Part shown: in pieces, positions 2,692 to 22,812 of the stretch | Position numbering within the stretch: the first letter of the stretch is position 1 | Layout: every line of letters starts with the position of its first letter | Origin: an uncultured Candidatus Saccharibacteria bacterium | GTDB taxonomy: Bacteria; Patescibacteriota; Minisyncoccia; Phycocordibacterales; Phycocordibacteraceae | Assembly (NCBI GenBank): GCA_964618705.1 | Contig: CAZUBJ010000002.1 | Coordinates: 1 to 46,523 of the forward strand | DNA length: 46,523 bases | Direction: 5' to 3' | Notes under the pieces: generated by a model | Told to the model about the DNA's origin: nothing | Seen by the model: the letters and a program-made list of their open reading frames with translations, nothing else | Database searches by the model: none | Position numbers and translations under genes: made by a program

Positions 2692-2716
2692 AGGTGTATA
2701 GTACTCCCCGCACACG

Positions 2717-2755
2717 AAAACTCCCCCGCGATACTGTGTATCGCGGGGGAGTTTT
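2717..2755. terminator. bidirectional hairpin terminator
   Basis: aaaaCTCCCCCGCGATA-ctgtg-TATCGCGGGGGAGtttt, a 13-bp stem flanked by A and T tracts. Confidence 0.8.
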
Positions 2756-5985: not shown

Positions 5986-6225
5986 AACGGTATGAAATTA
6001 GAAACGTATTAAAAATGTAGGCTGGAGATTGCTCCTACCTATATATCGTAGCACCTGCTTACGCTTAGTGTCCGTAAAAAAGAGTGGAATACAAGGCACT
6101 CCTTCAAATCCTAGGGAAAAGGGGTCGGTTGCGAGGCGCAAACAAGTCGTGAAACGAGCTGTACTAGAAGTACAGTGAATGAACGATGATGTTTGAAACA
6201 AAGCAACCGGCTTCTTTTGCCGGAT

Positions 6226-6492
6226 TTACTTCTTTAGGCCGAGCTTCTTGATAAGGGAGGTATACCCCTTCTTATCATTCTTCTCTAGGTAGCGAAGATG
6301 TGCGCGGCGGTCCGCAACCATCTGAAGAAGACCACGACGACTGTGGAAGTCCTTCTTGTTCTTCTTAAGGTGTGCAGCTAGTTCGTCAATTTTGCGGCTA
6401 AGCACGGCAACCTGGACGTCAGCAGAGCCGGTGTCCTTGTCATGTCGTGCCGCATCCTTGATAACGGCTGTCTTTACGCGTTTCGTAAGCAT
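6226..6492 (-). CDS. rpsO: 30S ribosomal protein S15
   Basis: TGSADVQVAVLSRKIDELAAHLKKNKKDFHSRRGLLQMVADRRAHLRYL. ATG at 6492 gives 88 aa; the longer listed start is an upstream extension. Confidence 0.9.
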   Translation of the reverse strand: MLTKRVKTAVIKDAARHDKDTGSADVQVAVLSRKIDELAAHLKKNKKDFHSRRGLLQMVADRRAHLRYLEKNDKKGYTSLIKKLGLKK

Positions 6493-6546
6493 TGAGGCTA
6501 CATTACCACACCTTGTCAAAACGCGCAAGTGTCCCGTAATAAGGCT

Positions 6547-6873
6547 CTACCACAAGCCACTCCCCTGGCCACCTACAATGATGGCCAGAAGAAAGAATCC
6601 AACAAGGAGTAATAGGAGGCTGATATACGGAAGAAGTGCTCCAAAGAATGCAATCTTGGCCCAGCGACTCGATGCTTTGGTGACTGCCATAATGCTCGCG
6701 AAAAGCGTAATGCCAACCGAACCATAAACTACCCAGTCAAAAAACGGAGGGTGTACCTTGAACACAAACTCAATAAATAGAACCCCTGGTAGGAGTATTA
6801 ATACAGAGACAAAGCCTGCAACCAACATGTCGTAGCTGTCTGCCCGGGGAGATTTTGTCTTACTGAGAATCAT
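6547..6873 (-). CDS. small membrane protein, function unknown
   Basis: The ATG at 6873 avoids overlap with the divergent recombinase gene. Three predicted TM helices. Confidence 0.45.
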   Translation of the reverse strand: MILSKTKSPRADSYDMLVAGFVSVLILLPGVLFIEFVFKVHPPFFDWVVYGSVGITLFASIMAVTKASSRWAKIAFFGALLPYISLLLLLVGFFLLAIIVGGQGSGLW

Positions 6874-6912
6874 ACAAAAAGTGTAGCGCCCGCGAAGGCT
6901 TATACTATACGT

Positions 6913-7830
6913 ATGGACGCAAGCCAAATGAAGCGGGAATTTCTCGAATATATTGAGATTGAGCGCGGTCGCGCGGTCAAAACGGTTGAAAACTACGACC
7001 ACTACCTCTCCCGCTACTTTGAGCAGATGAAAATAGTGAGTGTTTCCGACATTTCAGAGCAAAATATTCGTGAATTCAGGCTCTGGCTGAATCGCCAGCC
7101 GGGCACGGGGCGCGACTCTATGAAGCGCCGCACTCAGAATTACTACCTTATTGCGCTTCGCGCGTTCCTGAAGTTCCTGCGAAAGCGCGGCATTGAGAGT
7201 CTGTCCCCCGAGCGCATAGAGTTGGCAAAAGTCCCCGAGCGCCACTTGGACCTTATAAACGCTAGTGAATTGGCGCGTCTGATGAAGGCCCCAATGGATG
7301 CGTATGCTGCTGAAGAAGACGAGGGAAAGAAAGCAGCTTACTTGCGGGACTCTGCAATACTTGAGCTTCTCTTCTCGACGGGGCTTCGCGTATCCGAACT
7401 TTGTGCGCTTAATGTGGACATAGATCTCTCTCGTGACGAAGTGTCGGTGCGTGGAAAGGGCGACAAGGTGCGTGTGGTCTTTCTCTCAGACGCGAGCAAG
7501 GAAGCCATTCGTGCGTATCTAAAGGCCAGAAAAGATATGGAGGAGGCGTTATTTGTAGACGGCCGCCCCACTTCCCTTCATCGCATAACCCCACGCGACA
7601 TTCAGCGTCACTTAAAGAAGTACACCGCTCGCGCGGGTATCACCAGTAAAGTCTCTCCCCATACCCTACGCCACGTATTTGCTACTGATTTGCTCCAAAA
7701 CGGCGCAGATATTCGCTCGGTACAGGCGCTTTTGGGCCACGCCAGCATCAATACCACCCAGATTTACACGCACGTGACTGACGCGCATCTGCGCGAGGTC
7801 CACAAGAAGTTCCACTCCAAGAATCGCTGA
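6913..7830 (+). CDS. tyrosine site-specific recombinase, XerC/XerD family
   Basis: N-terminal SAM-like domain (FLEYIEIERGRAVKTVENYDHYL). Catalytic region GLRVSELCAL ... HTLRHVFATDLLQNGADIRSVQALLGHASINTTQIYTHV, containing the R..HxxR..Y signature. Confidence 0.85.
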   Translation: MDASQMKREFLEYIEIERGRAVKTVENYDHYLSRYFEQMKIVSVSDISEQNIREFRLWLNRQPGTGRDSMKRRTQNYYLIALRAFLKFLRKRGIESLSPERIELAKVPERHLDLINASELARLMKAPMDAYAAEEDEGKKAAYLRDSAILELLFSTGLRVSELCALNVDIDLSRDEVSVRGKGDKVRVVFLSDASKEAIRAYLKARKDMEEALFVDGRPTSLHRITPRDIQRHLKKYTARAGITSKVSPHTLRHVFATDLLQNGADIRSVQALLGHASINTTQIYTHVTDAHLREVHKKFHSKNR

Positions 7831-7834
7831 TAGG

Positions 7835-8383
7835 CTAGTTTCCTCCTACGCACGCATTTCCACCGTCCCAGTTAAGCCATGGGGAGGCATATTTATCCCT
7901 ACAATACGCAGGAAGCGAGCCAACCTCATACATGGTTGAGTAGAACCCATTATCACTTGCAGCTGCTGCGTGCGATGTCTCCAGGCTCACACCAAGTCCA
8001 TACTGCTGATAGGGAGCATTCGACTTATAGTTGAATCTTCTGTTTAGAAATGGCCCCCCTGCATCGTCTCGTGGGAATGCGCTTATATAGTTCACCAGGA
8101 GTGTCTCAAATACGCACCAATTGCTGTTGTATCCGCACGCACCGCCATTCGTTGTATCAAAAGTGCTCGCAAACGAACCAAAGGTACTACCGGGGTATCG
8201 TCCAGTGTCTGCGTAGTACAGCTCAATTGCCTTACGCATTTCGTCTACGGCCTCGATTCTTGCCGTATCCCGGGCTCTTGCTCGGATGGTACTGAGAGAG
8301 CTCAACACTACTGACGACAGAACGCCAATGATGGCAATAACAACCAGGAGCTCGATGAGGGTGAATCCTCGGGGGAGACGCAT
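7835..8383 (-). CDS. type IV pilin (prepilin-type N-terminal cleavage/methylation domain)
   Basis: MRLPRGFTLIELLVVIAIIGVLSSVVL, the class III signal G|FTLIE. ATG at 8383 is preferred. The C-terminal region contains Cys residues. Confidence 0.8.
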   Translation of the reverse strand: MRLPRGFTLIELLVVIAIIGVLSSVVLSSLSTIRARARDTARIEAVDEMRKAIELYYADTGRYPGSTFGSFASTFDTTNGGACGYNSNWCVFETLLVNYISAFPRDDAGGPFLNRRFNYKSNAPYQQYGLGVSLETSHAAAASDNGFYSTMYEVGSLPAYCRDKYASPWLNWDGGNACVGGN

Positions 8384-10808: not shown

Positions 10809-12272
10809 CTAGCAGACGTGGTGTTTCTTTAGTATAAGCTGTAGCTCCTCCTCTTCGCGCTCCTCCCGCTTCATCTTGCCAGAATCTCCTAGTTCCTTGA
10901 GCTGTGACTCTGGAAGCTCTAGGAGTACCTGTGCGCGCATATCCAAGTAGGTAAGCTCGTTCTTCTTTGGATCCTCCAGAACCTCCTCCAGAAGGGCGTT
11001 AAGCGTCCAGCCTATCTTTGGCCCTGGTTTCGCGTGAAACTGCTCCATAAGGCGATTTCCGTCTGTTTTGAGCATGGCCACAGATATTGGGTCGCGAAGT
11101 GCCTCCTCCACCATTGCCTTGTACTTACGAAAGCGGAACGGCTGCTCCTTTGGTCGTCCCGTCCCAATACGGTCGCAAATGCGCAGATCCAGCAATTCGT
11201 GAATGTTCTCCTCACCTACGTTCACAATCATGCGGCGTACCGCTGATAGGGTAATCTGGTCAGGATCAGAGAAAAACATGTGCCAACGCACCAGTTTAGA
11301 CACTTTCTCTATGGTTTCACGTGAAAAGCGGAGATCTTCCAGGGCTTTCTTGGTCACTCGGGCGCCCACCACTTCGTGCCCATGGAAGGTCCAATCCTTC
11401 TTTTCATCAGACCAGCGCCGTGTTTCTGGCTTAGATACATCATGGAACAGGGCAGCGAGGCGAATATCAAACGGCCAGTCCTTGTCTGCTGCGTGCTGCA
11501 GAGCGCGCAAAAGGTGCCCAAACACGTCAAAACTGTGTGCCTGATTCTGTTCCACACCGATTCCACGGGTAAGGTCAGGAGAAATGTACTCCAAAAGCCC
11601 AAGTTGCTGAGCAAGCACCAATGCCATCATTGGCTGTTTAGAATTAAGGATTCGCACGAACTCATCCCGAACCCTTTCACGTGAAACATGGCTCAAATTC
11701 TGGGCCTTTTCCTGTATTGCGGCCGCGGTTTCGCTATCTAGAGCGAAATCCAGCTCGGCGACAAGGCGAATAGCTCGCATAAGGCGAAGCGCATCCTCCT
11801 CAAAGCGCTCAAGAGGGGAGCCAACCGTGCGCAGTACTTTGTGAGTTATGTCCTTTTGTCCTATATACGGATCAATAAGGTGTCCTTTAGATTCATCAAG
11901 TGCGATGGCGTTGATGGTGAAGTCACGGCGCGCCAAATCTTCCTCCAAGTTATCCCCAAATGCTACGGCGTCAGGGCGACGCTTGTCGGAATAGCTTGAT
12001 TCGGTGCGATAGGGGGTCACCTCAATGATCGAGAGGGAAGGGTCTTCACTGCCAGACTTAACTCCCACGGTCCCAAAAGTGTTCTCGTAAAAGGATTCTG
12101 GACACACACGCACGATATCCTCTGGCTTTGCATTGGTAGTGACGTCCCAGTCCTTTGGGGTACGGCCTATAAGCAGGTCGCGCACACAGCCACCCACCAG
12201 GTAGGCTTCATATCCTGCGTCGCGGAGCGCACCAGTAACAGTGCGTACTTCTAGGGGAACCTCGTACTTCAT
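10809..12272 (-). CDS. cca: CCA-adding tRNA nucleotidyltransferase with C-terminal HD domain
   Basis: GGCVRDLLIGRTPKDWDVTT, RRDFTINAIA, HD region LFHDVSKP. Consistent with two of the four tRNA genes here lacking an encoded CCA. Confidence 0.85.
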   Translation of the reverse strand: MKYEVPLEVRTVTGALRDAGYEAYLVGGCVRDLLIGRTPKDWDVTTNAKPEDIVRVCPESFYENTFGTVGVKSGSEDPSLSIIEVTPYRTESSYSDKRRPDAVAFGDNLEEDLARRDFTINAIALDESKGHLIDPYIGQKDITHKVLRTVGSPLERFEEDALRLMRAIRLVAELDFALDSETAAAIQEKAQNLSHVSRERVRDEFVRILNSKQPMMALVLAQQLGLLEYISPDLTRGIGVEQNQAHSFDVFGHLLRALQHAADKDWPFDIRLAALFHDVSKPETRRWSDEKKDWTFHGHEVVGARVTKKALEDLRFSRETIEKVSKLVRWHMFFSDPDQITLSAVRRMIVNVGEENIHELLDLRICDRIGTGRPKEQPFRFRKYKAMVEEALRDPISVAMLKTDGNRLMEQFHAKPGPKIGWTLNALLEEVLEDPKKNELTYLDMRAQVLLELPESQLKELGDSGKMKREEREEEELQLILKKHHVC

Positions 12273-12336
12273 TACAAAAATACTAGTACGGAGCTCGCCA
12301 ATCTCCTAGGGCTCGCGTATTATCAACACTGTTCCT

Positions 12337-12411
12337 GCGCCCGTAGCTCAATGGATCGAGCACTTGTCTTCGGAACAAGGGATGGGGGTTCGATTCCCTC
12401 CGGGCGCACCA
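12337..12411 (+). tRNA. tRNA-Arg (anticodon TCG), CCA encoded
   Basis: Hand fold: acceptor GCGCCCG/CGGGCGC, D stem GCTC/GAGC, anticodon stem CTTGT/ACAAG with loop CTTCGGA, T arm GGGGG-TTCGATT-CCCTC, then ACCA. Confidence 0.9.
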
Positions 12412-12446
12412 ATAGTGAGCGTATGCCAGGTATACTGTTTCTCAGT

Positions 12447-13637
12447 ATGACCAAACTAAACACAAAGGAGCGGACGCGATTGCTTTCGGTGGCTAAGAAG
12501 TTTGGCACCCCGCTCTACGTGTACGACGCGGCTATGATTTCTGCGCAGTGCGAGAAGTTGAAGCGGAACTTCAAAGACACTAACTTTCATTACGCAATGA
12601 AAGCAAACTCTAATCCGCAGGTTCTTTCGCTTATCAAGAAGGCGGGGCTTGGGGTGGAGGCCGTGTCGATAGGGGAGCTTGAGCTCGCATTATCAATTGG
12701 TTTTCCAGCCTCGCGCATTAGTTTTACCTGCTCAAGCCTTACCGAGGCGGAGCTTGTGCATGTTGCCAATACCGGTGTACGCGTCCATTTGGATTCACTG
12801 CATCAGCTCCAGGTCTGGGGAACAAAGAAGCTCGGTTCCACAGCCTCTATTCGGTTGAATCAAGGAATTGGGGGAGGGCACCACGCACATGTGATTACCG
12901 GAGGTCCTGACAGCAAATTCGGCATTGTGTTGCGCGATGTGCCAAAAGCAAAAGCAATCGCAAAGAAGTACGGCGTATCCATAACAGGCATACAGCAGCA
13001 CATTGGCTCTAACGTGCTCGATATAAAGATTTTTGAGAAGTCTGTTCGGGTTCTGTTGGAAACAGCGAAGTCATTCCCGGATGTTGCGCACATAGACTTC
13101 GGTGGAGGTATTGGTGTTGCGTATGCGCCAGGCGCCGCATCGCTTCCGCTGGGAGAACTTGGTAAGCGCATGCGCTCACTCACCGGTAGCTTTCAGCGCG
13201 AGGTGAGACGCACGGTCGCGTTCTCTATGGAGCCGGGCCGGTTCCTCGTTGCTGAGGCGGGCACACTGCTCGTCTCAGTCACGGATATCAAATCAACAGA
13301 GAAGCATCACTTCGTCGGGGTCAATTCTGGATTCAATCAACTTATCCGTCCGGCCATGTATGGCTCGTATCATCCGATTGAGAACCTCACCCGTGCGCGC
13401 GGACCTCGTAAGTCGGTGACGGTGGCAGGGAACGTGTGCGAGTCGGGCGACATCTTTGCCAGTAAGCGATTGATGGTCGCTCCACAGATAGGGGATACGC
13501 TCGCCATACTTATTGCTGGCGCATACGGGTTCACGATGGCGTCTAACTACAACCTCCGAAAGTTGCCACGCGAGGTACTTCTGACCCCCTCAGGGGCAAA
13601 GGATATCTCGTTTGTACCAAGTACCCACGCTCGGTAG
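12447..13637 (+). CDS. lysA: diaminopimelate decarboxylase-like PLP enzyme (group IV decarboxylase)
   Basis: FGTPLYVYD, HYAMKANSN (PLP Lys), GGGIGVAY, EPGRFLVAEAG, CESGD. The start is the ATG at 12447 (alternative 12423). The listed 12351 start overlaps tRNA-Arg. Confidence 0.8.
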   Translation: MTKLNTKERTRLLSVAKKFGTPLYVYDAAMISAQCEKLKRNFKDTNFHYAMKANSNPQVLSLIKKAGLGVEAVSIGELELALSIGFPASRISFTCSSLTEAELVHVANTGVRVHLDSLHQLQVWGTKKLGSTASIRLNQGIGGGHHAHVITGGPDSKFGIVLRDVPKAKAIAKKYGVSITGIQQHIGSNVLDIKIFEKSVRVLLETAKSFPDVAHIDFGGGIGVAYAPGAASLPLGELGKRMRSLTGSFQREVRRTVAFSMEPGRFLVAEAGTLLVSVTDIKSTEKHHFVGVNSGFNQLIRPAMYGSYHPIENLTRARGPRKSVTVAGNVCESGDIFASKRLMVAPQIGDTLAILIAGAYGFTMASNYNLRKLPREVLLTPSGAKDISFVPSTHAR

Positions 13638-13680
13638 GTCTGGCCTAAGGCTGGGCTCCTGTGGTATCCTGCGTTTCAGC

Positions 13681-13751
13681 GCGGATATGGTTTAGTGGTA
13701 AAACGAGTCCTTGCCAAGGATTAGTCGGGAGTTCGATTCTCCCTATCCGCA
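13681..13751 (+). tRNA. tRNA-Gly (anticodon GCC), no encoded CCA
   Basis: Acceptor GCGGATA/TATCCGC, D stem GTTT/AAAC, anticodon stem AGTCC/GGATT with loop TTGCCAA, T arm GGGAG-TTCGATT-CTCCC, discriminator A. Confidence 0.9.
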
Positions 13752-14020
13752 CCCGAGCAGCAAAAGAACGCCAAAGGGCGTTCTTTTGCATTTATGCTCG
13801 GGTGCGGATAGAGCACGGTGTGGGATACCGTGCGTGGAGAATCGAAAGCCGGAAGCGCGACGGCGCCGAGGCGGGGTCGCGCAAAATCCCAGCAGGGATT
13901 TATGTGTGACCGATGCGTGACAGCGACTCTTCGAGCGAAGCGAGTTAGAGAAGCGGAACTTCTCCCTATCTCCGAACCAGGGGGACGAAAGTGGTAATCG
14001 CCGGTTCTCCCTCAAATCCT
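13752..14020 (+). repeat. tRNA-3'-end-linked element, copy behind tRNA-Gly(GCC); two tandem modules
   Basis: 16-bp perfect inverted repeat at 13744-13759 / 13795-13810. Inverted T-arm copy GGAGAATCGAA at 13836-13846. 31-nt and 44-nt blocks are shared with the 16261-16500 copy. A decayed direct copy of the tRNA 3' end lies at 13960-13977. A tail AAAGTGGTAATC..TTCTCC is shared with the tRNA-Pro copy. Confidence 0.7.
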
Positions 14021-14166
14021 CCATGTTCATAAGTGGGGACAAAGGTGTTAATAGTGGGGACAACTTTATAGGACAAGTGCCGTGTCTTTAGCGCTTGTCT
14101 GCAAAATAGTGAGTGTTTATATGCTTTTTCTCTCAGTCTGCCTATTGGTCTTGTATACTGAGGACT

Positions 14167-14565
14167 GTGACCGACATCTCCACACTCTCCACAAAAGAGC
14201 TTGGCGCCATGGGGGAGGAGGCCGCTGCTTTGTACTTAAAGAAGCAGGGATTCTCTATCGTGGATAGGAATGTGGTGCGCAAGACGGGAGAGATAGATGT
14301 GATAGCAAAGAAGAAAAGCACGCTCCATTTCGTAGAAGTGAAGTCTCGTATTTGTCGGGAATTCCCTCAGGATGATGCAGGAGATACCGCATTCGATCCC
14401 TCGGCAAACCTCCACAACGCGAAGATTAGTAAGGTTGCTCGAACAAGTGAGTGGTACGTAGCGGAGAAGGGGTGGGAAGGGGACTGGCAGGTGGATGGCC
14501 TCCTGGTATGGCTTCGAAGTCGGGATGGGGCTGCCTTTATCTCCTACCTCCCACAAATTCTATAA
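14167..14565 (+). CDS. YraN/UPF0102-family endonuclease-like protein
   Basis: LGAMGEEAAALYLKKQGFSIVDRNVVRKTGEIDVIAKKKSTLHFVEVKSR. The start is uncertain: GTG 14167 or ATG 14209. Confidence 0.7.
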   Translation: MTDISTLSTKELGAMGEEAAALYLKKQGFSIVDRNVVRKTGEIDVIAKKKSTLHFVEVKSRICREFPQDDAGDTAFDPSANLHNAKISKVARTSEWYVAEKGWEGDWQVDGLLVWLRSRDGAAFISYLPQIL

Positions 14566-14624
14566 ATCTGCTAGTATGGCTGAGAAAGAGGGACGCTAAG
14601 ATAGTCCGGGGAGGGTCGGTCGCT

Positions 14625-14699
14625 TGCACCGACGCACCCCGTTCGCTCGGCGAAACACCAAATATACGCTCCGCGTGCATTTGGTGTTTGCCTCACTCA
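14625..14699. repeat. CT-rich REP-like intergenic repeat, copy 3
   Basis: cgttcgctcggcg-AAACACCAAAT…ATTTGGTGTTT-gcctcactcac, with the same flank words as the other copies. Confidence 0.45.
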
Positions 14700-14770
14700 C
14701 GGGGTGTCGTATACCGGTAGTACGCTACTTTTGGGAAGTAGATGACGGAGTTCAATTCTCCGCACCCCGA
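14700..14770 (+). tRNA. tRNA-Pro (anticodon TGG), no encoded CCA
   Basis: Acceptor CGGGGTG/CACCCCG, D stem GTAT/GTAC, anticodon stem CTACT/AGTAG with loop TTTGGGA (G37), T arm CGGAG-TTCAATT-CTCCG, discriminator A. Confidence 0.85.
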
Positions 14771-14961
14771 CTACTTTTGAACGCAGTGAAAAATAGACGG
14801 GTGCAGCACTGTGTCTGCACACAGTGCGTGGAGAATTGAATGGCGGAACCTTATTTCAGTCAGCAGACTGAAATGGTGAGCCGGGCTCGCGAGCATTGTG
14901 AGTGACGACGAACAATGACTTGTGAGCAAAAGTGGTAATCCACGTTTCTCCGCACCCCGAC
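14771..14961 (+). repeat. tRNA-3'-end-linked element, copy behind tRNA-Pro
   Basis: Inverted acceptor copy at 14794-14804. Inverted T-arm copy GGAGAATTGAA at 14830-14840. Perfect 16-nt direct repeat TTCTCCGCACCCCGAC at 14756-14771 and 14946-14961. Confidence 0.7.
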
Positions 14962-14986
14962 AAATTTGTGCGAAGCAGTAGAAACA

Positions 14987-15019
14987 CAAAAGCCGCCCGA
15001 AAGGGCGGCTTTTGTTTTT
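14987..15019. terminator. bidirectional terminator
   Basis: CAAAAGCCGCCC-gaaa-GGGCGGCTTTTG followed by TTTTT. Confidence 0.85.
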
Positions 15020-15032
15020 GATCTAAGTCCGA

Positions 15033-16109
15033 TTACCGCATCGCGACTCCACCCAACACCTCCGTAAGTGTGGTGCGCAGTTCCTCGTTGCGTGCGGCAA
15101 TCTCTGCAAGCAAGTCAGCGGAGCGATAGGAAGCAAGATACTCATCAAGTGTGATGCCCATATCTTCCTCAAAACTCTCGCGCACGTGGCCGGCGGTAAC
15201 TGCACGCAGATCGCGCTCGCTAGGTGTGCCGCCTGTGGTGCTGGTGGTAATAAGTGCCACCATCTCGCCACGCGCGTTCACAATGCCGCCTCCAGAAGAG
15301 CCGTGCTGCGCAGCCTCACTTCCACCAAGGGATAGCAAGTCTACGCTCGTACGACCAAAGGTGTATACGTCGCGCACGGAGCCAAGCACCAGCGTAGGCA
15401 TCAGTGAGTCCTTAATCTGCGCGGTGGTAAGCGACTGTGCGCCGTATGAGCCAATAGCTACAGCGTCACCAATCTTTGGTGCGTTTACTCCAAAGGGCAC
15501 GTGCGCAAACTCGGTTGGAAGGGCAGCGCCTGTTGCTGAGCGAGTGATAGCAAGGAGCGCGATGTCGTTCTTGCCGTTTCCGCGAGGGTTCGCCACGACA
15601 AGGCTCGTGCTATTTGCTTCAACCCACGGCTTTGAAATATAGATAAGCTCCGCAAAGTATGCGGTGCGAGCCGGTGCGCCGGTGCGTACCACGCAGACTA
15701 CGTTGCCCTTGGTCGGGTGATTCTCAAGCAAGAAGAGCTGCGCAATGTGTGCGTTGGTGATTATCACGCCATCAGAGCTAATGACTACACCAGAGCCAGA
15801 AATAGACTTCACACCGCCATTCTTAGAGGCGCAGATAATATTCACCAGGGCGTCGGCCAGATTGTCCTTTGCGCCAGACAAATCAGCCGGCGGTGCTTCG
15901 CTGCGACTGGTAAGGCTACCAACTGCGGCAAGTTGTCCCTTCGCGGTCAGGGAATTAGCAAAGGATGGAGACCCATCAAAGAAACCGTAGGGCACAGGAC
16001 CCTCGGGCGCAGTGTTTGGTTTATCAAACAGATTGGTATAGAGCGCCAAGTACGCTATGACGGTTGCGACAACCAGCAAACCAGCCCAAGCAAGTAGGTT
16101 TTTTGACAT
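15033..16109 (-). CDS. membrane-anchored trypsin-like (S1) serine protease
   Basis: N-terminal TM helix. GSGVVISSDGVIITNAHI (His), NDIALLAI (Asp), GSSGGGIVNARGEMVAL (Ser). ATG at 16109. No PDZ-like tail is recognisable. Confidence 0.8.
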   Translation of the reverse strand: MSKNLLAWAGLLVVATVIAYLALYTNLFDKPNTAPEGPVPYGFFDGSPSFANSLTAKGQLAAVGSLTSRSEAPPADLSGAKDNLADALVNIICASKNGGVKSISGSGVVISSDGVIITNAHIAQLFLLENHPTKGNVVCVVRTGAPARTAYFAELIYISKPWVEANSTSLVVANPRGNGKNDIALLAITRSATGAALPTEFAHVPFGVNAPKIGDAVAIGSYGAQSLTTAQIKDSLMPTLVLGSVRDVYTFGRTSVDLLSLGGSEAAQHGSSGGGIVNARGEMVALITTSTTGGTPSERDLRAVTAGHVRESFEEDMGITLDEYLASYRSADLLAEIAARNEELRTTLTEVLGGVAMR

Positions 16110-16186
16110 ATACCTATTATACAGCATAATCACAAAAAGAAAAGCCCTCCACAGGGCCACGCAAGTATGCTATTCTCGTCTCTGAA

Positions 16187-16260
16187 GCGGGATTAGTTTA
16201 ATGGTAGAACTACAGTTTTCCAAACTGTTAGCAGGAGTTCGATTCTCCTATCCCGCACCA
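16187..16260 (+). tRNA. tRNA-Gly (anticodon TCC), CCA encoded
   Basis: Acceptor GCGGGAT/ATCCCGC, D stem GTTT/GAAC, anticodon stem ACAGT/ACTGT with loop TTTCCAA, T arm AGGAG-TTCGATT-CTCCT, then ACCA. Confidence 0.85.
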
Positions 16261-16602: not shown

Positions 16603-17619
16603 ATGAGTGAAAGCCTCCCTAATTCTTCCTCAGAAATCGAACAGGAGGCGCCAAACGAAACGCACGAAGAAAACGATCACTCTCCTGAGAGTGATCTGAC
16701 AACGCAGGATGCTGAAGTTGTAATAAAATACCAAGAAGGCCGAGAAACAGCTCAGACAGCCTTTGACAATGCGATTAGAGAAAGAAACTCTAATGAAAAC
16801 CTTTCGCGTGTTCGAGAGTCACTAGGACTAGCCACAAGTCAGCAACATAATTCTTTTGCATTAGACGATATAGAGGCGCTAGAAGCGGAACTGATACGTG
16901 CTGAAGCCAATTATCCAGGGCACTGGACGTTATTATTGGCTGATCGTCTACGCGATCCTGAGACCAAGAAAAAATTTCTGGAGACAAGAACTGAGGCTCT
17001 CCCTTCATTACAAGAAGGAAACCCGGGACCATTTGATAGGGAAAAACGATTTCGGGCTCATTATGAAGAGCAGATGGCAAATTATGAGGAGAATATTGAA
17101 TCTGTATTTAATCAAACTGTAGTCGGCAATGCCGCTGAATTTGGGAAGAAACCTGTTCATGCAGGTTCAGGGAACATAGGAGAGCCTGGAACCGTTTTTC
17201 TAGATTCGGAAACAAAGGAGGGCTTACCCCTGACTCCTCGGCAGAAGATGATAATCGAAGCTCATGAAAAAGGGCATGGTATGCGGGATTTTCAAGGATC
17301 AGATGCCATAGAAATTCGGTCGGTACTAGATTTCAGTGTTTTAAAGGAGCGTGAGGAGATTGCTACTGCACAGAATCCACAAGATAGATTCGCTAATTAT
17401 CTAAATAAACCCGAAGAAATCATTGAACGCATGGCCCAGCTCAAGAATTATTTCGGATTTAAGGGAAATGAGGTTTTTACAAAGAAGCATTTGGACTACG
17501 CACGAGAGCATTACATTCAAGACACAGGTTTAGATAACACAATGAGTCACTTCTTTGCTGCTGTAACTCCAGAGACGGAGGATCACTTCATTGAGGTAAT
17601 GAATAAATATCCGATATAA
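16603..17619 (+). CDS. hypothetical protein with an HEXXH motif (possible zinc metallopeptidase), low-GC gene
   Basis: 338-aa ORF with an acidic N-terminus and IIEAHEKGHGMRDF (HEKGH). Hand counts give 38-47% GC in sampled 60-nt lines. No signal peptide is seen. Confidence 0.5.
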   Translation: MSESLPNSSSEIEQEAPNETHEENDHSPESDLTTQDAEVVIKYQEGRETAQTAFDNAIRERNSNENLSRVRESLGLATSQQHNSFALDDIEALEAELIRAEANYPGHWTLLLADRLRDPETKKKFLETRTEALPSLQEGNPGPFDREKRFRAHYEEQMANYEENIESVFNQTVVGNAAEFGKKPVHAGSGNIGEPGTVFLDSETKEGLPLTPRQKMIIEAHEKGHGMRDFQGSDAIEIRSVLDFSVLKEREEIATAQNPQDRFANYLNKPEEIIERMAQLKNYFGFKGNEVFTKKHLDYAREHYIQDTGLDNTMSHFFAAVTPETEDHFIEVMNKYPI

Positions 17620-19294: not shown

Positions 19295-20050
19295 ATGATG
19301 AAGGAACTAGAGGATCTTGGGCTCTCTGAAAAGGAGGCACGCGTATACCTGGCATCTCTTGAAATTGGACGTGCAACGGCAGATCAGCTTGCTAAGCACG
19401 CAAATATTGTGCGGCCAACAACCTACGTGCAAATTAAAGCCCTCATGGAAATGGGGCTAATGAGTACGTACGAAGAAGGGAAAAAGACGTACTTTGCGCC
19501 AGAATCTCCGTCAGCGCTCAAGCGCCTGCTTGAAAAGAAGAAAGAAGCTCTGCGAACGAGTGAGTCGCTACTGTCCAGCATGCTCCCTGACCTCACTCGT
19601 CAGTTTGAGGGAGCGGGTGAGCGTCCGGTGGTTAGGTTTTTCCCCGGGAAGGAGGGTCTTGCTTCTGCGAGAGAAGAAATACTAACAACAAGGGAGAAAA
19701 AAGTTTATGCAGTATTTTCTCCGGAGCACATGTCAAGGATTTTTTCTTCGGAGTATTTGGACGACTACTCGGACAGAAGAAGGGCACTGGGGATTCATTC
19801 TGTTGGAATTTATAACCAAAAAGAAATGTTTGACAGAGCTGGGCTGGATCAGCTTACGGAACGAAGGCAGCTTCCCCCAGAGCTGGAATCGCTATCTGTA
19901 GACATATATATAACAGATAACAAAGTCACCATTCTTTCGCTAGAGGGAAGTTTATTTGGTTTCGTAATGGAGAGCGACCAGCTCGCCTCTAGCATGAAGG
20001 CAATATTTAGTTTTCTCTGGACATCATCATCTGGTCCAGATAGTAAATAA
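19295..20050 (+). CDS. TrmB-family transcriptional regulator
   Basis: LGLSEKEARVYLASLEIGRATADQLAKHANIVRPTTYVQIKALMEMGL, a winged-HTH N-terminal domain typical of TrmB. Confidence 0.75.
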   Translation: MMKELEDLGLSEKEARVYLASLEIGRATADQLAKHANIVRPTTYVQIKALMEMGLMSTYEEGKKTYFAPESPSALKRLLEKKKEALRTSESLLSSMLPDLTRQFEGAGERPVVRFFPGKEGLASAREEILTTREKKVYAVFSPEHMSRIFSSEYLDDYSDRRRALGIHSVGIYNQKEMFDRAGLDQLTERRQLPPELESLSVDIYITDNKVTILSLEGSLFGFVMESDQLASSMKAIFSFLWTSSSGPDSK

Positions 20051-20051
20051 A

Positions 20052-20277
20052 AATGGGGTCGGGAGTAAACTCCCGACCCCGAGCGGCTGAAAGCCGCTAC
20101 CACTTGACCGGTGACGGGTCTAGTTGCCGTCCCCGCCTCTGTTGAGATAGGTCAAGACCTACTCCTTCTCTCACGTTTGCCCAGTATTACCTGGGCGGTC
20201 ATCTGGCTACACGCTCCAGAGAACGAACATCTCACTTCCTTTCGGCTGGGCTGAAAACACTCCAAAACTGCCAGACC
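20052..20277 (-). ncRNA. candidate orphan small RNA (about 225 nt) defined by a promoter and an intrinsic terminator
   Basis: Minus-strand TTGACA-N17-TAGATT (plus coordinates 20311-20283). Minus-strand terminator GGGGTCGGGAG-ttta-CTCCCGACCC followed by ATTTTTATTT (20080-20045). The interior has at least five helices and no ORF. Confidence 0.4.
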
Positions 20278-20425
20278 ACACTAATCTAGCAGTGGCAACA
20301 CTTTTTGTCAAGATACTTAGTTAGAAAAGCACTTTTAATATAAATTGCACTGACGAATGTTTTGCGCGAAGTGCCTTATACCCACTGCATTTTCAGTAGG
20401 AAATATATCGTCATGTCAAAACATA

Positions 20426-20454
20426 TTGACAAAAAAAGTGCAAGGGTATATAAG
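20426..20454 (+). promoter_or_regulatory. sigma70-type promoter of the small-ORF cassette
   Basis: TTGACA-N17-TATAAG (also TATATA two nt upstream), set in an AT-rich divergent control region. Confidence 0.6.
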
Positions 20455-20661
20455 AGCTAAGTCAGCGCTGGCTGACAAGAGCTTTGACGTTTAAATACAA
20501 GTATTCGTTATTCCTATCCGGACAGATAGGCAAGTGTCAGGAACTCTCCGGCCCATTAAATGCCGGGCCTACTCACTATTCTGTCTGGTATAGGGATTGC
20601 GAAAGCAATTCCTGGGAATTTCCCATAAAGGGAAGACTGGCGCCCGGGGAGGGGCATAACT

Positions 20662-20856
20662 ATGAACATTGAAGAAGACTATGGCTTGAAGGAGCGCCGC
20701 CTTCGCGATCTCGAAAGGGAGGCGGACGAGCTCCTGCGCCAGGCTGGCTGCAACTTTGCTGGTGTTAACCGGCGGGATGTGGTCGCGAGCCAACAGGCTT
20801 TTGAACGCCTGGCGATTCGCACCCCGACGGGGGGAAAGTCCTGTCGGAGGCACTAG
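20662..20856 (+). CDS. small hypothetical protein (64 aa), cassette ORF 1
   Basis: GGGGAGGGG lies 7-8 nt before the ATG. The N-terminal half is charged and helical. Confidence 0.4.
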   Translation: MNIEEDYGLKERRLRDLEREADELLRQAGCNFAGVNRRDVVASQQAFERLAIRTPTGGKSCRRH

Positions 20857-20966
20857 CCGGTGCCACCTTGCCCTGCAGCGGGGTCACACTGCAGGTTGCT
20901 GGGTAGTCCACCAGCGTAAATGCATGGGCAAGATGCGCGGACATCTATAAAAGCCGCAAAAAGTAC

Positions 20967-20997
20967 GGGCAGACAAGAATGTGTCTGCCCCTTTATT
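20967..20997 (+). terminator. terminator/attenuator-like hairpin between cassette ORF 1 and ORF 2
   Basis: GGGCAGACA-agaatg-TGTCTGCCC followed by CTTTATT. Confidence 0.5.
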
Positions 20998-21032
20998 CAG
21001 CCTGCGAAATGGTTCGTGGGTTGATAGAGATA
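20994..21032 (+). repeat. 39-nt hairpin motif, copy 1 (12 nt upstream of the ORF 2 ATG)
   Basis: tattCAGCCtGCGAAatggTTCGTgGGTTGatagagata; 34/39 identical to copy 2. Confidence 0.6.
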
Positions 21033-21043
21033 CGGGGCTGTTG

Positions 21044-21412
21044 ATGAAAATTTTGAACCTTACGCAGCACGACGCCACGGCTGATCAGATCGCCGCCGGC
21101 GTGCTACCCGCAGGCTGTGAAAAAGAAGAGGTGCGCGAGCTCCTCACTTTTGACAGCCTGCCGAGCAGGGAGTGGATTGAGGCGAAGGCGCAAGCCCTCG
21201 CCGACGTCGCTCGTGCTCACGGGCCGCTCATCGACGCCGTCATGATCGGCGGCGCGCCCTATCTTATGGGGCCGCTCGAGCGCGCGTTGAAGGCGCAGAG
21301 TATCAAAGCCCTGTACGCCTTCTCGCTTCGTGAGAGCGGCGAGACGCCAGACGGAGAAGGTGGTGTGCGAAAGACGATGGTCTTTAAGCATGCCGGCTTT
21401 ATCGAGGCGTAG
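21044..21412 (+). CDS. hypothetical protein (122 aa), cassette ORF 2
   Basis: MKILNLTQHDATADQIAAGV… …VMIGGAPYLMGPLERAL…YAFSLRES…FKHAGF. It looks like a conserved small alpha/beta protein, but I cannot name the family. Confidence 0.55.
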   Translation: MKILNLTQHDATADQIAAGVLPAGCEKEEVRELLTFDSLPSREWIEAKAQALADVARAHGPLIDAVMIGGAPYLMGPLERALKAQSIKALYAFSLRESGETPDGEGGVRKTMVFKHAGFIEA

Positions 21413-21480
21413 CTGCCAGTGGGGAGTGGTGATCCTGACAACAGAATTCACCAAGGAGGACATTGCTACGTCCTCCTCCA

Positions 21481-21519
21481 TATTCAGCCCGCGAAACGGT
21501 TCGTTGGCTGATAGGGATA
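21481..21519 (+). repeat. 39-nt hairpin motif, copy 2 (5 nt upstream of the ORF 3 ATG)
   Basis: tattCAGCCcGCGAAacggTTCGTtGGCTGatagggata. Confidence 0.6.
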
Positions 21520-21524
21520 AAGCG

Positions 21525-21785
21525 ATGACCGATAAGAATGAAGAAGTTTTCTTTCAGGACTGGAAGCCAGGAAAGGGCCACCAGGAAATCTGCGTCTGGG
21601 TGAACAAGGACCCGGATGGGAACTTCTGGATCGCCATCGTCACCCGGGACGGCCGCTATCCGCGGTGGGAGACTAGTCGTGGCGCGATTGTCCGAACTCT
21701 TTCCGAAGCATTCGCCACTCTCAATGTGTGGCTCGGAGAACGCGATTGCGGGTGGAATATCGAAACAGAGGAGGAGGTGGAATGA
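21525..21785 (+). CDS. hypothetical protein (86 aa), cassette ORF 3
   Basis: The ATG at 21525 follows motif copy 2. The stop overlaps the next start (ATGA at 21782-21785). Confidence 0.5.
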   Translation: MTDKNEEVFFQDWKPGKGHQEICVWVNKDPDGNFWIAIVTRDGRYPRWETSRGAIVRTLSEAFATLNVWLGERDCGWNIETEEEVE

Positions 21786-22036
21786 AAAACCGGAATCCAA
21801 TCGCCAAGGCACTTCGGAGCCCAGCGCTCCGACAGCGCGTCGTGTCCGACAAGAAGAAGTGGTCAGACCGAAAAAAGGTGCGAAATTCGCTCAAATTGGG
21901 CAAGTACGATCGTGACCGATACGATTTGCCCCTCTTATTGAGACCGATGACATTCCGTCGTCGGCTCATCAGAGGCTTGATCTTTCATGCGCAATTCCGC
22001 CACCGTTCTCGTGCCCGTCGTCATGGGCATCGCTGA
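21782..22036 (+). CDS. ArfA-like (alternative ribosome-rescue factor A-like) small basic protein, cassette ORF 4
   Basis: NPIAKALRSPALRQRVVSDKKKWSDRKK compared with E. coli ArfA [29 protein letters not shown] (pattern N-x-I-x3-L-x2-P-x-[LF]-RQRV-x3-KK). Translationally coupled to ORF 3. Confidence 0.45.
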   Translation: MKNRNPIAKALRSPALRQRVVSDKKKWSDRKKVRNSLKLGKYDRDRYDLPLLLRPMTFRRRLIRGLIFHAQFRHRSRARRHGHR

Positions 22037-22163
22037 CAGCTTCGTCGGGCTCTTCGGCCTCATGCTGAATCCCTACGGACTCCTCGGCATCGGTTTGTCG
22101 CTCTTCTTTCTGCTGGGAGGCATCTGGCTCATCCAGATCGGCTTTCAGCAGTCGAAGACGTAG
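21987..22163 (+). CDS. possible 58-aa two-helix membrane peptide, cassette ORF 5 (below the ORF-track size cut-off)
   Basis: Hand translation: MRNSATVLVPVVMGIADSFVGLFGLMLNPYGLLGIGLSLFFLLGGIWLIQIGFQQSKT*. It overlaps the 3' tail of the ArfA-like ORF in another frame. Confidence 0.35.
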   Translation: MRNSATVLVPVVMGIADSFVGLFGLMLNPYGLLGIGLSLFFLLGGIWLIQIGFQQSKT

Positions 22164-22195
22164 ACAAGGCAGCAGAAGGAACTGCAAAAATCCTC

Positions 22196-22227
22196 CAAGG
22201 CGCGGCTATAAGTCGCGCCTTTTTGTT
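22196..22227 (+). terminator. intrinsic terminator closing the cassette
   Basis: AAGGCGCG-gctataagt-CGCGCCTT followed by TTTGTTT. Confidence 0.75.
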
Positions 22228-22248
22228 TACCAACGTATACTCCATCTC

Positions 22249-22812
22249 ATGAAAATCGGCATTATGGGTGCGGAGGGGAGCTTTTCAGAAGAGGCCGCCC
22301 GCAAGTACATAGAAACTGAGAAGCTGAGCGACGCCGAGCTCGTCTTTCTGGTGTCTGCTGAGCGCGTACTTACAGCGCTTGAGGCCAGCTCTATAGATAC
22401 CGGCATCTTTCCTATAGAAAACAGCAACGGCGGGATTGTGATAGAGGCTGTGCACGCCATGGCAAAGCATCGCTTTCAGGTAGAGAAGATGTTTGAGATA
22501 GATGTGCATCAGAATCTTCTCGTACTTCCTGGTACTAACCCCGAACAAATCACTGCAATCACATCGCACGACCAAGCACTCAAACAATGCCGCATGTACT
22601 TGAAGCGAAAATGGCCAGGAGTAGACCTGTCTGAATACGAAGACACTGCAAAAGCTGCGGCAGACCTACGTGCCGGCGTATTGCCACCTACAACCGCCGT
22701 AATTGCCTCTAGGCGCGCGGCAGAGCTGTACGAGCTAGATATACTCGAAGCATCTATTCAAGACCTTAAATTCAACTATACGAGCTTTGTAGTTGCGAAA
22801 GCACTCGCTTAA
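22249..22812 (+). CDS. prephenate dehydratase catalytic (PDT) domain protein without an ACT domain
   Basis: MKIGIMGAEGSFSEEAA…GIFPIENSNGGIV…ITSHDQALKQC…TAVIASRRAAELY. At 187 aa there is no room for a regulatory ACT domain. Confidence 0.75.
   Translation: MKIGIMGAEGSFSEEAARKYIETEKLSDAELVFLVSAERVLTALEASSIDTGIFPIENSNGGIVIEAVHAMAKHRFQVEKMFEIDVHQNLLVLPGTNPEQITAITSHDQALKQCRMYLKRKWPGVDLSEYEDTAKAAADLRAGVLPPTTAVIASRRAAELYELDILEASIQDLKFNYTSFVVAKALA

Follow-up and report, generated by a model that had tools for sequence, protein, structure and literature searches.

Several described systems combine small genes with repeated or embedded structured elements. In Escherichia coli, RNase III cleavage or internal termination leaves the arfA messenger RNA (mRNA) without a stop codon, and ArfA accumulates only if tmRNA is limiting; ArfA is regarded as an invention of the beta- and gamma-proteobacteria. 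Structured elements are repeated between the cistrons of one transcript in the early region of phage T7, as RNase III sites, and in polycistronic operons, as intercistronic stabiliser hairpins, and the palindromes of the repetitive extragenic palindromic (REP) and bacterial interspersed mosaic element (BIME) type are short, imperfect and intergenic, and are repeated within operons. Integron arrays, including clusters of attC sites lacking an integrase (CALIN), place promoterless co-oriented small open reading frames (ORFs) behind one promoter, with a repeated structured separator between them. The present analysis concerns a 1.8-kb block (20426-22227) within 46,523 nucleotides (nt) of DNA from an uncultured Candidatus Saccharibacteria bacterium of the candidate phyla radiation (CPR) (contig CAZUBJ010000002.1, assembly GCA_964618705.1); this whole stretch is called the window below. 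The block is a true operon of five tiny-protein genes, and the organising feature of the locus is a two-hairpin module that is repeated before ORF2, ORF3 and, in a diverged form, ORF5. The parts are of known kinds, namely an arfA-like switch, intercistronic hairpins and a Csx20-family protein, and no paradigm is overturned. The module, its coupling to a variable small-gene array that lies beside a TrmB-like regulator, and its occurrence in CPR bacteria appear to be undescribed in the resources queried.

The operon runs from promoter and leader through ORF1, module A, ORF2, module B, the coupled pair ORF3/ORF4, module C and ORF5 to a terminator, with its features placed as follows (SD, Shine-Dalgarno sequence; aa, amino acids; H1 and H2, the two hairpins of the module; H2', the second hairpin of module C).

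20426-20454, forward strand: operon promoter, -35 TTGACA (20426-20431), 17-nt spacer, -10 TATAAG (20449-20454)
20461-20661, forward strand: structured leader, about 206 nt
20662-20856, forward strand: ORF1, 64 aa, no family
20967-21029, forward strand: module A, H1 (20967-20990) abutting H2 (20991-21029), then SD and the ORF2 ATG
21044-21412, forward strand: ORF2, 122 aa, MJ1673/Csx20-family small alpha/beta enzyme-like protein
21454-21516, forward strand: module B, H1 (21454-21477) abutting H2 (21478-21516), then the ORF3 ATG
21525-21785, forward strand: ORF3, 86 aa, single WD40-like repeat mini-protein
21782-22036, forward strand: ORF4, 84 aa, ArfA/DUF7230-like, with conserved residues 1 to about 53 (21782-21940)
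21898-21974, forward strand: module C (diverged), H1 (21898-21931), CUCUUAUU, H2' (21932-21974), then the ORF5 ATG
21987-22163, forward strand: ORF5, 58 aa, two hydrophobic segments (by eye)
22197-22230, forward strand: operon terminator, 11-bp stem (22197-22221), then UUUUUGUUU

A first-pass annotation, made from the sequence alone, had described five ORFs of 64, 122, 86, 84 and 58 aa behind a TTGACA-N17-TATAAG promoter and a structured leader, with an ATGA overlap at 21782-21785 (the shared stop and start of ORF3 and ORF4) and a final terminator, and all of these are present. Its view of the block as a discrete cassette-like unit of atypical composition, equipped with a promoter and a terminator of its own, is likewise borne out. 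The GC-richness on which that view partly drew holds at third codon positions (GC3), where all five ORFs lie at 0.66-0.85 and the 35 other large ORFs of the window at 0.36-0.64, with no overlap of the ranges; the flanking genes for the TrmB-like regulator and prephenate dehydratase (PDT) have values of 0.46 and 0.52. For the block as a whole, the excess is modest (55.7% G+C vs 52.4% in the whole window), and it ranks 21st among 448 windows of 1.8 kb (about the top 5%). Relatives for comparison were reached through homologues of ORF2 and ORF4, and are referred to by locus numbers; nucleotide identity to the window is 82-89% for L014/L015 and 97% for L016. Against L014/L015, the ratio of nonsynonymous to synonymous substitution rates (dN/dS), for which a value near 1 would have spoken against coding, is 0.21 for ORF1, 0.07 for ORF2, 0.14 for ORF3, 0.19 for ORF5 and 0.17 for residues 1-58 of ORF4, and third codon positions take most of the substitutions between the window and L014 in the five ORFs. 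These rates show purifying selection on all five ORFs, with the exception of the ORF4 tail (residues 59-84), where a dN/dS of 3.9 marks the last 26 codons as free of constraint. The region also contains seven terminator-like sites, compared with 2.4 +/- 1.7 in shuffles.

Modules A and B were first seen as a 50-nt direct repeat preceding ORF2 and ORF3. The internal terminator-like hairpin of the first-pass annotation is real (20967-20990), and is one half of module A; the repeated two-hairpin arrangement had been overlooked. H1 is a GC-rich stem of 6-13 bp with free sequence. H2 begins 0-1 nt past H1, has 17 bp with one bulged U and an AU-rich base, and follows the pattern CUYUAU-U-CAGCYCGYGAA[AUGG]UUCGYGRGCUG-AUAGAG; the module consensus is thus CUYUAUUCAGCYCGYGAAAUGGUUCGYGRGCUGAUAGAG behind a free-sequence hairpin. 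An SD-like G-run lies 5-15 nt past H2, and the start codon of the next gene is found 7-20 nt past the H2 stem in the 11 full-length copies, in no fixed frame; counted from the 46-nt model, whose end is 4 nt beyond the stem, this spacing is 3-16 nt. Module A has a folding z-score of -4.9 and covariance-model scores of 66 and 86 bits, and module B has a z-score of -4.3 and scores of 64 and 83 bits. Module C (z-score -5.5) has its H1 within codons 39-50 of ORF4 and an H2' that differs in sequence from H2; its architecture, with compensatory changes, is also present in L014 and L003, and the covariance models match positions equivalent to it in L001, L005 and L011.

With a covariance model of H2, the 46.5-kb window yields only two copies and each related locus two to six, clustered and on the same strand, and the combined H1 and H2 model gives 31 matches at E < 1e-4 in the related loci. 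In the module alignment, 92.4% of cells are paired (a percentage inflated by the fitting of the alignment to the model) and 19 of 25 pairs show compensatory changes; none of 500 shuffles reached any of these measures, and slid controls were 36-47% paired. An independent check considered the 43 nt ending at H2, which fold to a hairpin stopping 0-1 nt short of H2 in 28 of 28 unique copies, with a mean identity of merely 34% over the same stretch; in one of these copies, L001 5429, the minimum-free-energy fold is other than a simple abutting stem. Mismatches in the module pairs comprise 68 G.U and 18 A.C (p 5e-8, uncorrected for relatedness), an excess that indicates the sense strand as the folded one, most simply as mRNA. 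Two other readings of H2 were discarded: as coding sequence, since its distance to the downstream ATG occurs in all three frames, and as a sigma-70 promoter, since hexamers that could serve as one at a usable spacing to the SD are absent.

An exact-pattern scan of GTDB genomes retrieved six stretches, all from metagenome-assembled genomes of Candidatus Adlerbacteria/Paceibacterota, a scan of metagenome contigs retrieved four, and 2.9 million viral contigs contained none. The motif is rare and confined to a narrow lineage, and in consequence few independent sequences represent it. In searches of Rfam 15, only tRNAs reach the gathering score across the window, nothing is found at E < 0.9 within 19900-22400 (module, leader and a minus-strand RNA described below), and eight related loci yield only tRNAs at E <= 0.1. 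The module is a well-supported structured RNA element absent from Rfam, which organises a variable small-protein array in hosts whose gene regulation is almost unstudied.

Some copies of the module have peculiarities in their reading frames. In module A, an upstream ORF of 11 codons (MVRGLIEIRGC, 21009-21046) starts at the AUG of the H2 loop, and its UGA overlaps the ORF2 start as UGAUG, and the copy at L001 3616 shows an equivalent AUGA arrangement. Such an upstream ORF was rejected as a general feature of the module, since the corresponding loop triplet of module B is ACG and the other copies lie in other frames. The conserved UGAUAG of H2 forms tandem stop codons in one frame, and the MJ1673 ORF of L005 (4001-4474), which lacks its usual stop, runs through H1 and ends at the conserved UGA in the 3' strand of H2.

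The gene into which module C is built, ORF4, had been called ArfA-like, and this assignment gains weight from profile searches. BLASTP aligns ORF4 with E. coli ArfA at 10 of 21 identities (E 4e-4), and the two have in common the motif N-x-I-x3-L-x2-P-x2-RQRV-x3-KK. A profile of six ORF4-like sequences taken from related loci pulls PF03889 (ArfA) proteins at E 1e-7 to 1e-5 from among 5.8 billion sequences, including one that bears the JGI name ArfA, together with PF23876 (DUF7230) proteins at E down to 3e-12; E. coli ArfA itself matches DUF7230 weakly (E 0.11). When the PDB is ranked by the ORF4-family profile, the top six entries are all ArfA chains (E 0.07-0.15). The single sequence is less productive: residues 1-58 retrieved one near-identical protein only, and a PDB sequence search with ORF4 gave nothing. 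ORF4 also matches the PHROG families 20887 and 2701, and a literature search returned no papers on DUF7230. Judging from these sequence comparisons, ORF4 is best regarded as an ArfA/DUF7230 relative, homologous to ArfA and short of a certified ArfA.

In each of the six ArfA-like ORFs examined, a module is located at the 3' end or overlaps it. In the window, the conserved part of ORF4 stops at a module hairpin, and the tail overlaps module C and ORF5; in L001 and L005, the ArfA-like ORF reads into a canonical module, and the stop codon wanders, giving products of about 60 aa in L003, 84 aa in the window and 147 aa in L014. The place equivalent to module C in E. coli arfA is occupied by a hairpin of about 20 bp. 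Both genes thus encode a small basic peptide with the common motif and a profile link to PF03889, both carry a stable hairpin about 50 codons in, within the 3' part of the ORF, and both have a tail beyond the hairpin that is dispensable or unconstrained. The two differ in that ORF4 misses the Pfam ArfA model and the DUF7230 cutoff, belongs to a CPR bacterium, is translationally coupled to a variable upstream ORF, and has as its hairpin a two-hairpin module that also precedes unrelated genes of the operon. From the logic of E. coli arfA, together with the hairpin, the free tail and the wandering stop of ORF4, the same non-stop logic may be inferred for ORF4. If this is true, ArfA-type rescue and self-regulation through non-stop mRNA would extend to the candidate phyla radiation, and the hairpin-in-ORF design would appear to be ancient or repeatedly reinvented.

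The explanation that we favour for the locus as a whole, with a little more confidence than doubt, is a regulated polycistronic operon in which the modules act as processing or termination points and ORF4 is arfA-like. One sigma-70-driven transcript would encode small accessory proteins specific to an Adlerbacteria-like CPR lineage, and the adjacent TrmB-like regulator would probably control it. The sense-strand RNA module, with its free-sequence GC-rich H1 and abutting conserved H2, would punctuate the cistrons, each copy bringing about partial termination and/or an endonuclease cut, by RNase III on H2 or by RNase Y in the AU-rich base. A protective H1 would remain at the 3' end of the upstream message, and the downstream message would begin with a 5' hairpin, as the primary transcript does. 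The hairpin at the start of the primary transcript is in keeping with a demand for such a structure at the 5' end of every message. Within the ORF4 frame, the same event would truncate the message and leave it without a stop codon; the ORF4 product of about 53 aa would build up only if trans-translation is overloaded, and its task would then be the rescue of stalled ribosomes. ORF2 would act as an enzyme of the MJ1673/Csx20 type. The analysis shows real genes, a module of conserved structure, the homology of ORF4 to ArfA, its unconstrained tail and a modular gene content; from these we infer that the modules are cut or terminate transcription, that ORF4 is expressed from non-stop mRNA, that TrmB controls the operon and that ORF2 has enzymatic activity.

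Several observations weigh against this explanation. Downstream of H1 there is only a weak U-tract (CUUUAUU or CUCUAUU), which H2 takes up in its own pairing; H2, a stem of 17 bp that includes a bulge, lies at the short end for RNase III substrates; and the percentage of paired cells is inflated as stated above. The sequence of H2 is strongly conserved across genomes whose MJ1673 proteins are 58-70% identical, which suggests a sequence-specific partner that the explanation does not name. As for ORF4, it shows no PF03889 match in Pfam at E <= 10, and its DUF7230 score of 19.5 bits is below the cutoff of 27.

In comparison with the T7 early-region sites and stabiliser hairpins, the geometry is the same in that the upstream message would keep a 3' hairpin and the next ribosome-binding site would lie just downstream. 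The module differs in consisting of two abutting hairpins with a conserved H2 sequence and in being limited to one locus type in a narrow CPR lineage, and its cleavage is putative. Like the module, REP/BIME palindromes are compatible with mRNA stabilisation or termination; however, REP elements occur genome-wide in hundreds of copies, whereas the module has two canonical copies and one diverged copy in 46.5 kb, all of them within one locus, and every copy is found on the sense strand with a fixed spacing to the start codon that follows.

The TrmB-like gene is the constant neighbour of the arrays.

19295-20050, forward strand: TrmB-like winged-helix regulator, 251 aa, Pfam TrmB E 2.3e-12

It adjoins nine module arrays (window, L001, L003, L005, L008, L011, L014, L016 and L017, the last with two loci), and its product is probably the regulator of the array. 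The window is an ordinary CPR chromosome with genes for HU, RNase Y, ClpP, NusA, PilB/PilC, ComEC, RecJ, TIM, PGK, the CCA-adding enzyme and tRNAs, and the order of TrmB-like gene, array, HU and RNase Y forms a syntenic chromosomal locus common to several Adlerbacteria/Paceibacterota genomes. L017 has two separate loci with a TrmB-like gene and a module array (6080-8013 and 11551-14622), one of which directly adjoins RNase Y, as does that of L003. Across genomes, the order ORF1, MJ1673 gene, ArfA-like gene recurs, and the intervening ORFs vary from genome to genome. L014 has one extra unit relative to the window, consisting of a module and an 82-aa Zn-ribbon-like ORF and flanked by module copies; the unit sits between two copies of the module, at a point that only one copy occupies in the window. 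Window and L016 agree at 99.6% identity over the segment 20200-22250, whose right edge is at the operon terminator, and the flanks are 84-90% identical (PDT about 90%). In the TrmB-like protein (L016 2627-3379), residues 1-120, the DNA-binding half, are 98% identical, and residues 121-250 about 45%; window positions 19656-20125 are not alignable to L016, despite the 99.6%-identical operon alongside. This alternation of near-identical and diverged segments is a recombination mosaic, in which the putative sensor domain of the TrmB-like protein is either swapped or diversifying.

The region upstream of the TrmB-like regulator appears to be variable too. In the window, a distance of about 1.7 kb separates the TrmB-like gene from an upstream 338-aa ORF (16603-17619) that has a very low GC3 (0.36) and matches nothing in Pfam, and in L016 an AIPR abortive-infection gene (145-1389) lies upstream of the PG_binding and TrmB genes.

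ORF2 had been recognised as a conserved small alpha/beta protein, and its family can now be named as PF27247 (MJ1673), with weak matches to Csx20. The search retrieved 203 homologues at E <= 0.001, and the 120 listed carry PF27247; those that are 93-99% identical to ORF2 carry the precomputed assignment, and a local Pfam scan of ORF2 itself gave no match. The NCBIfam model Csx20 (NF040559) aligns with ORF2 over its full length (residues 4-120 with profile positions 2-122 of 124, E 1e-5) at a score of 26 bits against a cutoff of 70, and the PADLOC Csx20 matches are weak (E 3e-4 and 4e-3). NLTQH, GGAP, R96 and H116 are invariant in the family. The AlphaFold2 model of ORF2 has a pLDDT of 95.7 and no significant match among PDB folds; the best ones are the CARF-domain proteins Cam1 and Csm6, bound to cyclic oligoadenylate (E 0.07, TM-score 0.38-0.44), and a PDB sequence search with ORF2 found nothing. 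The MJ1673/Csx20 family is presumably linked to cyclic-oligoadenylate ring nucleases. A listing from 2014 includes MJ_1673 among the small proteins associated with type III-A (PMC3973734).

ORF2 thus resembles the Csx20/MJ1673 type III accessory proteins in its full-length NCBIfam match, its PADLOC match, the PF27247 assignment of its close homologues and the CARF-domain proteins at the top of its weak fold matches. It differs from them in falling far under the equivalog cutoff and in its setting. A Pfam scan of 37 proteins of the window, made up of the five cassette products, TrmB, PDT and 30 large ORFs, found no cas domain, no CRISPR-like tandem repeat array was found in the window, and the CPR loci with module arrays have no called cas genes. 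ORF2 shares its operon with a ribosome-rescue-like gene, and elsewhere the family occurs in phage-like regions. MJ1673/Csx20 is thereby placed outside CRISPR loci, beside translation-quality-control genes here, and this setting bears on the actual role of the 'CRISPR-associated' MJ1673/Csx20 enzymes.

The non-CPR homologues of ORF2 (L021, L022, L023/L024 and L025) are set in stretches of small uncharacterised ORFs that bear hallmarks of phages; their neighbours include Phage_pRha, a helix-turn-helix (HTH) repressor and a DNA methylase, and one of them adjoins PNK3P and AAA_33, a pair of the RNA-end-healing type. Homologues also occur in phage records, namely Rhodothermus phage RM378 (gene 2) and two others. 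In the L011 array, the MJ1673 gene was not seen, and a 113-aa ORF (2413-2754, reverse strand) gives a very weak full-length match to STIV_B116-like (PF08960) at E 0.18; STIV_B116-like is the family of the viral ring nuclease AcrIII-1. The 113-aa ORF has no PDB match, and its assignment as STIV-B116/DUF1874-like is unsupported. In L008, where the MJ1673 gene was likewise not seen, an N-terminal fragment at 2-118 (reverse strand), with no Pfam match, resembles it by eye. These ORFs may be functional stand-ins for ORF2, a suggestion that is statistically unsupported.

Another explanation is a domesticated accessory region of a phage or mobile element, of anti-defence or early type, with ORF2 as a counter-defence protein of the ring-nuclease kind and the modules as inherited intercistronic signals. 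The phage-like surroundings of MJ1673 homologues, their presence in RM378 and two other phage records, the PHROG matches of ORF4, the GC3 far above that of host genes and the 99.6%-identical segment shared with L016 between less similar flanks all agree with such an origin. The module pattern, however, is absent from the 2.9 million viral contigs scanned, no phage structural, replication or integration genes lie nearby, PADLOC and PHROGs provide no functional assignment, and the synteny of a locus whose MJ1673 proteins are 58-70% identical implies long residence. We consider this origin possible, though doubtful; since it concerns where the locus came from, it is compatible with the regulated operon favoured above. 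Of the resemblance to mobile elements noted in the first-pass annotation, the phage or phage-like contexts of ORF2 and ORF4 relatives and the changes in whole-cassette content stand, and the plasmid or integrative-and-conjugative-element (ICE) location is contradicted by the syntenic chromosomal locus. The same annotation had also likened the block to a toxin-antitoxin or defence-type cassette. The genes are indeed small and coupled, ORF5 has two hydrophobic segments, PADLOC lists the Csx20-like domain as CRISPR-associated, and the AIPR gene of L016 lies about 2.7 kb upstream of ORF1; but the five ORFs show no match to any family of toxins, antitoxins or defence effectors, neither cas genes nor a CRISPR-like array are found in the proteins and DNA scanned, and the two best-assigned products indicate ribosome rescue and nucleotide or RNA metabolism. 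PADLOC-DB 2.0 returned only the weak Csx20-domain matches for ORF2 and a generic winged HTH for the TrmB-like protein, with none for ORF1, ORF3, ORF4 and ORF5, and a toxin-antitoxin or anti-phage role is accordingly thought highly improbable. An assembly chimera, or a set of non-coding pseudo-ORFs, has a negligible probability and is refuted as far as the data allow: the sharp GC3 difference from the flanking genes could have suggested it, but block and flanks recur with identical junctions in the independent assemblies L016, L019 and L014/L015 from other samples, all ORFs are under purifying selection, and the tetranucleotide profile of the block is no outlier, 33 of 150 windows correlating worse with the whole window.

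The remaining alternatives concern the module itself. If H1 and H2 were DNA-level recombination sites folded in single strands, as attC sites are, the locus would be a cassette array exchanging units of module and ORF. The exact insertion of the extra L014 unit between module copies would fit, as would the occurrence of the same module before different small ORFs in different genomes, the co-orientation of the cassette ORFs behind one promoter and their atypical GC3, and the G.U bias is equally well explained by top-strand DNA folding; whole-unit content differences between relatives and atypical composition are likewise shared with integron arrays. On the other hand, the module has neither RYYYAAC/GTTRRRY core sites nor the R''/L''/L'/R' layout, and for want of core sites it was ruled out on sequence as an attC site. 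No integrase of the IntI type is adjacent, the array neighbour being the TrmB-like regulator, and the sole tyrosine recombinase of the window is 13 kb away. Moreover, the order of ORF1, MJ1673 and ArfA-like genes is kept across genomes, the modules stand 5' of the ORFs with none behind the last cassette of the window, they are tightly spaced before start codons and lie within the ArfA-like ORF, and ordinary homologous recombination between 46-nt repeats explains the indel. Recombination sites of this sort are thus rather improbable. H2 could also be a double-stranded operator for a TrmB-like repressor, each cassette then being its own transcription unit of H1 terminator, operator/promoter, ribosome-binding site and ORF. 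H2 is a long near-palindrome with conserved sequence, every copy is preceded by a terminator-like H1, and the array neighbour is a winged-helix regulator; yet a symmetric operator should show no strand asymmetry in its mismatches, the diverged copies (L003 4403, L017 7603 and module C) keep pairing and change sequence, no plausible -10/-35 is seen by eye for a start upstream of the SD, which lies 5-15 nt past H2, and no H2-like palindrome is seen by eye at the real promoter of the operon. This makes an operator very unlikely. A bolder proposal takes the module as a portable punctuation element of a new CPR cassette system, read by a dedicated factor and driving both the gain, loss and exchange of small-protein cassettes at a fixed chromosomal site and their post-transcriptional co-regulation; the factor could be the TrmB-like protein or a small protein of the array. 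The system would amount to an integrase-less functional analogue of the integron coupled to a ribosome-rescue switch. This proposal is unlikely.

Within the favoured operon, the promoter and leader are conserved features. Both promoter hexamers are unchanged in L014/L015, where the intergenic DNA around them has diverged, and L001 has TTGACA-17-TATACA at the corresponding position; the promoter was read from the sequence, since the consensus promoter scan demands T at the last -10 position and does not list it. The leader (folding z-score -3.8) has a hairpin, GUCAGC-GCUG-GCUGAC (20461-20476), at its 5' terminus and continues as a long irregular stem that is conserved. Its 5' part of about 150 nt is kept in L014 and L001 (nhmmer E 1e-30 and 5e-10; L001 2906-3065), and L014 (1400-1795) has an insertion of about 190 nt between the conserved leader domain and the SD of ORF1. 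A 5' hairpin is found at the matching position in L001, and that of the window has UCAGC/GCUGA in common with the upper stem of H2. A riboswitch, a processive antiterminator or another kind of regulatory RNA could reside in the leader. At its other end, the operon has one strong terminator, in which the sequence after the final stem is also given as TTTTTGTTT; together with the conserved promoter and the ATGA overlap of ORF3 and ORF4, this terminator speaks for a single operon.

Between the TrmB-like gene and the operon, and divergent from the latter, lies a candidate RNA.

20046-20280, reverse strand: candidate non-coding RNA, about 230 nt, bounded by a separate promoter and terminator

Its promoter is TTGACA-17-TAGATT (20311..20283), its terminator (20080..20055) is one that it shares, back-to-back, with TrmB, and the RNA is predicted to be structured (z-score -3.7). 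The promoter and about 170 nt of the 5' part are kept in L014, and L001 has an analogous promoter, terminator and similar core sequence. Frame-breaking indels and the absence of third-position bias speak against a small-protein gene, and a 240-aa minus-strand gene called in L001 shows no conservation and is probably spurious. Pairing of this RNA with the module was rejected, since the sole inverted repeat found gives a same-sense, not a complementary, RNA sequence. The TrmB-like regulator, the divergent small RNA and the conserved leader are three candidate partners of the module within 2 kb.

Regarding the remaining products, ORF1 and ORF5 match nothing in Pfam, NCBIfam, PHROGs or PADLOC; ORF1 has a homologue in L001 (3337-3483, 47% identity). 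A phmmer search with ORF3 gave 117 matches, and individual repeats from multi-WD40 proteins are what its residues 17-62 align with. ORF3 stands free as one WD40-like repeat of about 1.3 blades, and as a lone blade it would need oligomerisation or docking onto a partner to fold. ORF5 had been described as a two-helix membrane peptide, and its two hydrophobic segments agree with this by eye; L003 has a positional counterpart after its ArfA-like ORF, which starts with a hydrophobic stretch. Farther from the cassette, the tyrosine recombinase of the window (6913-7830) matches Phage_integrase and Phage_int_SAM_1 over 305 aa and is XerC/D-like by reading, and four tRNA genes (Arg, Gly, Pro, Gly) form a loose cluster at 12337-16260 that does not adjoin the cassette.

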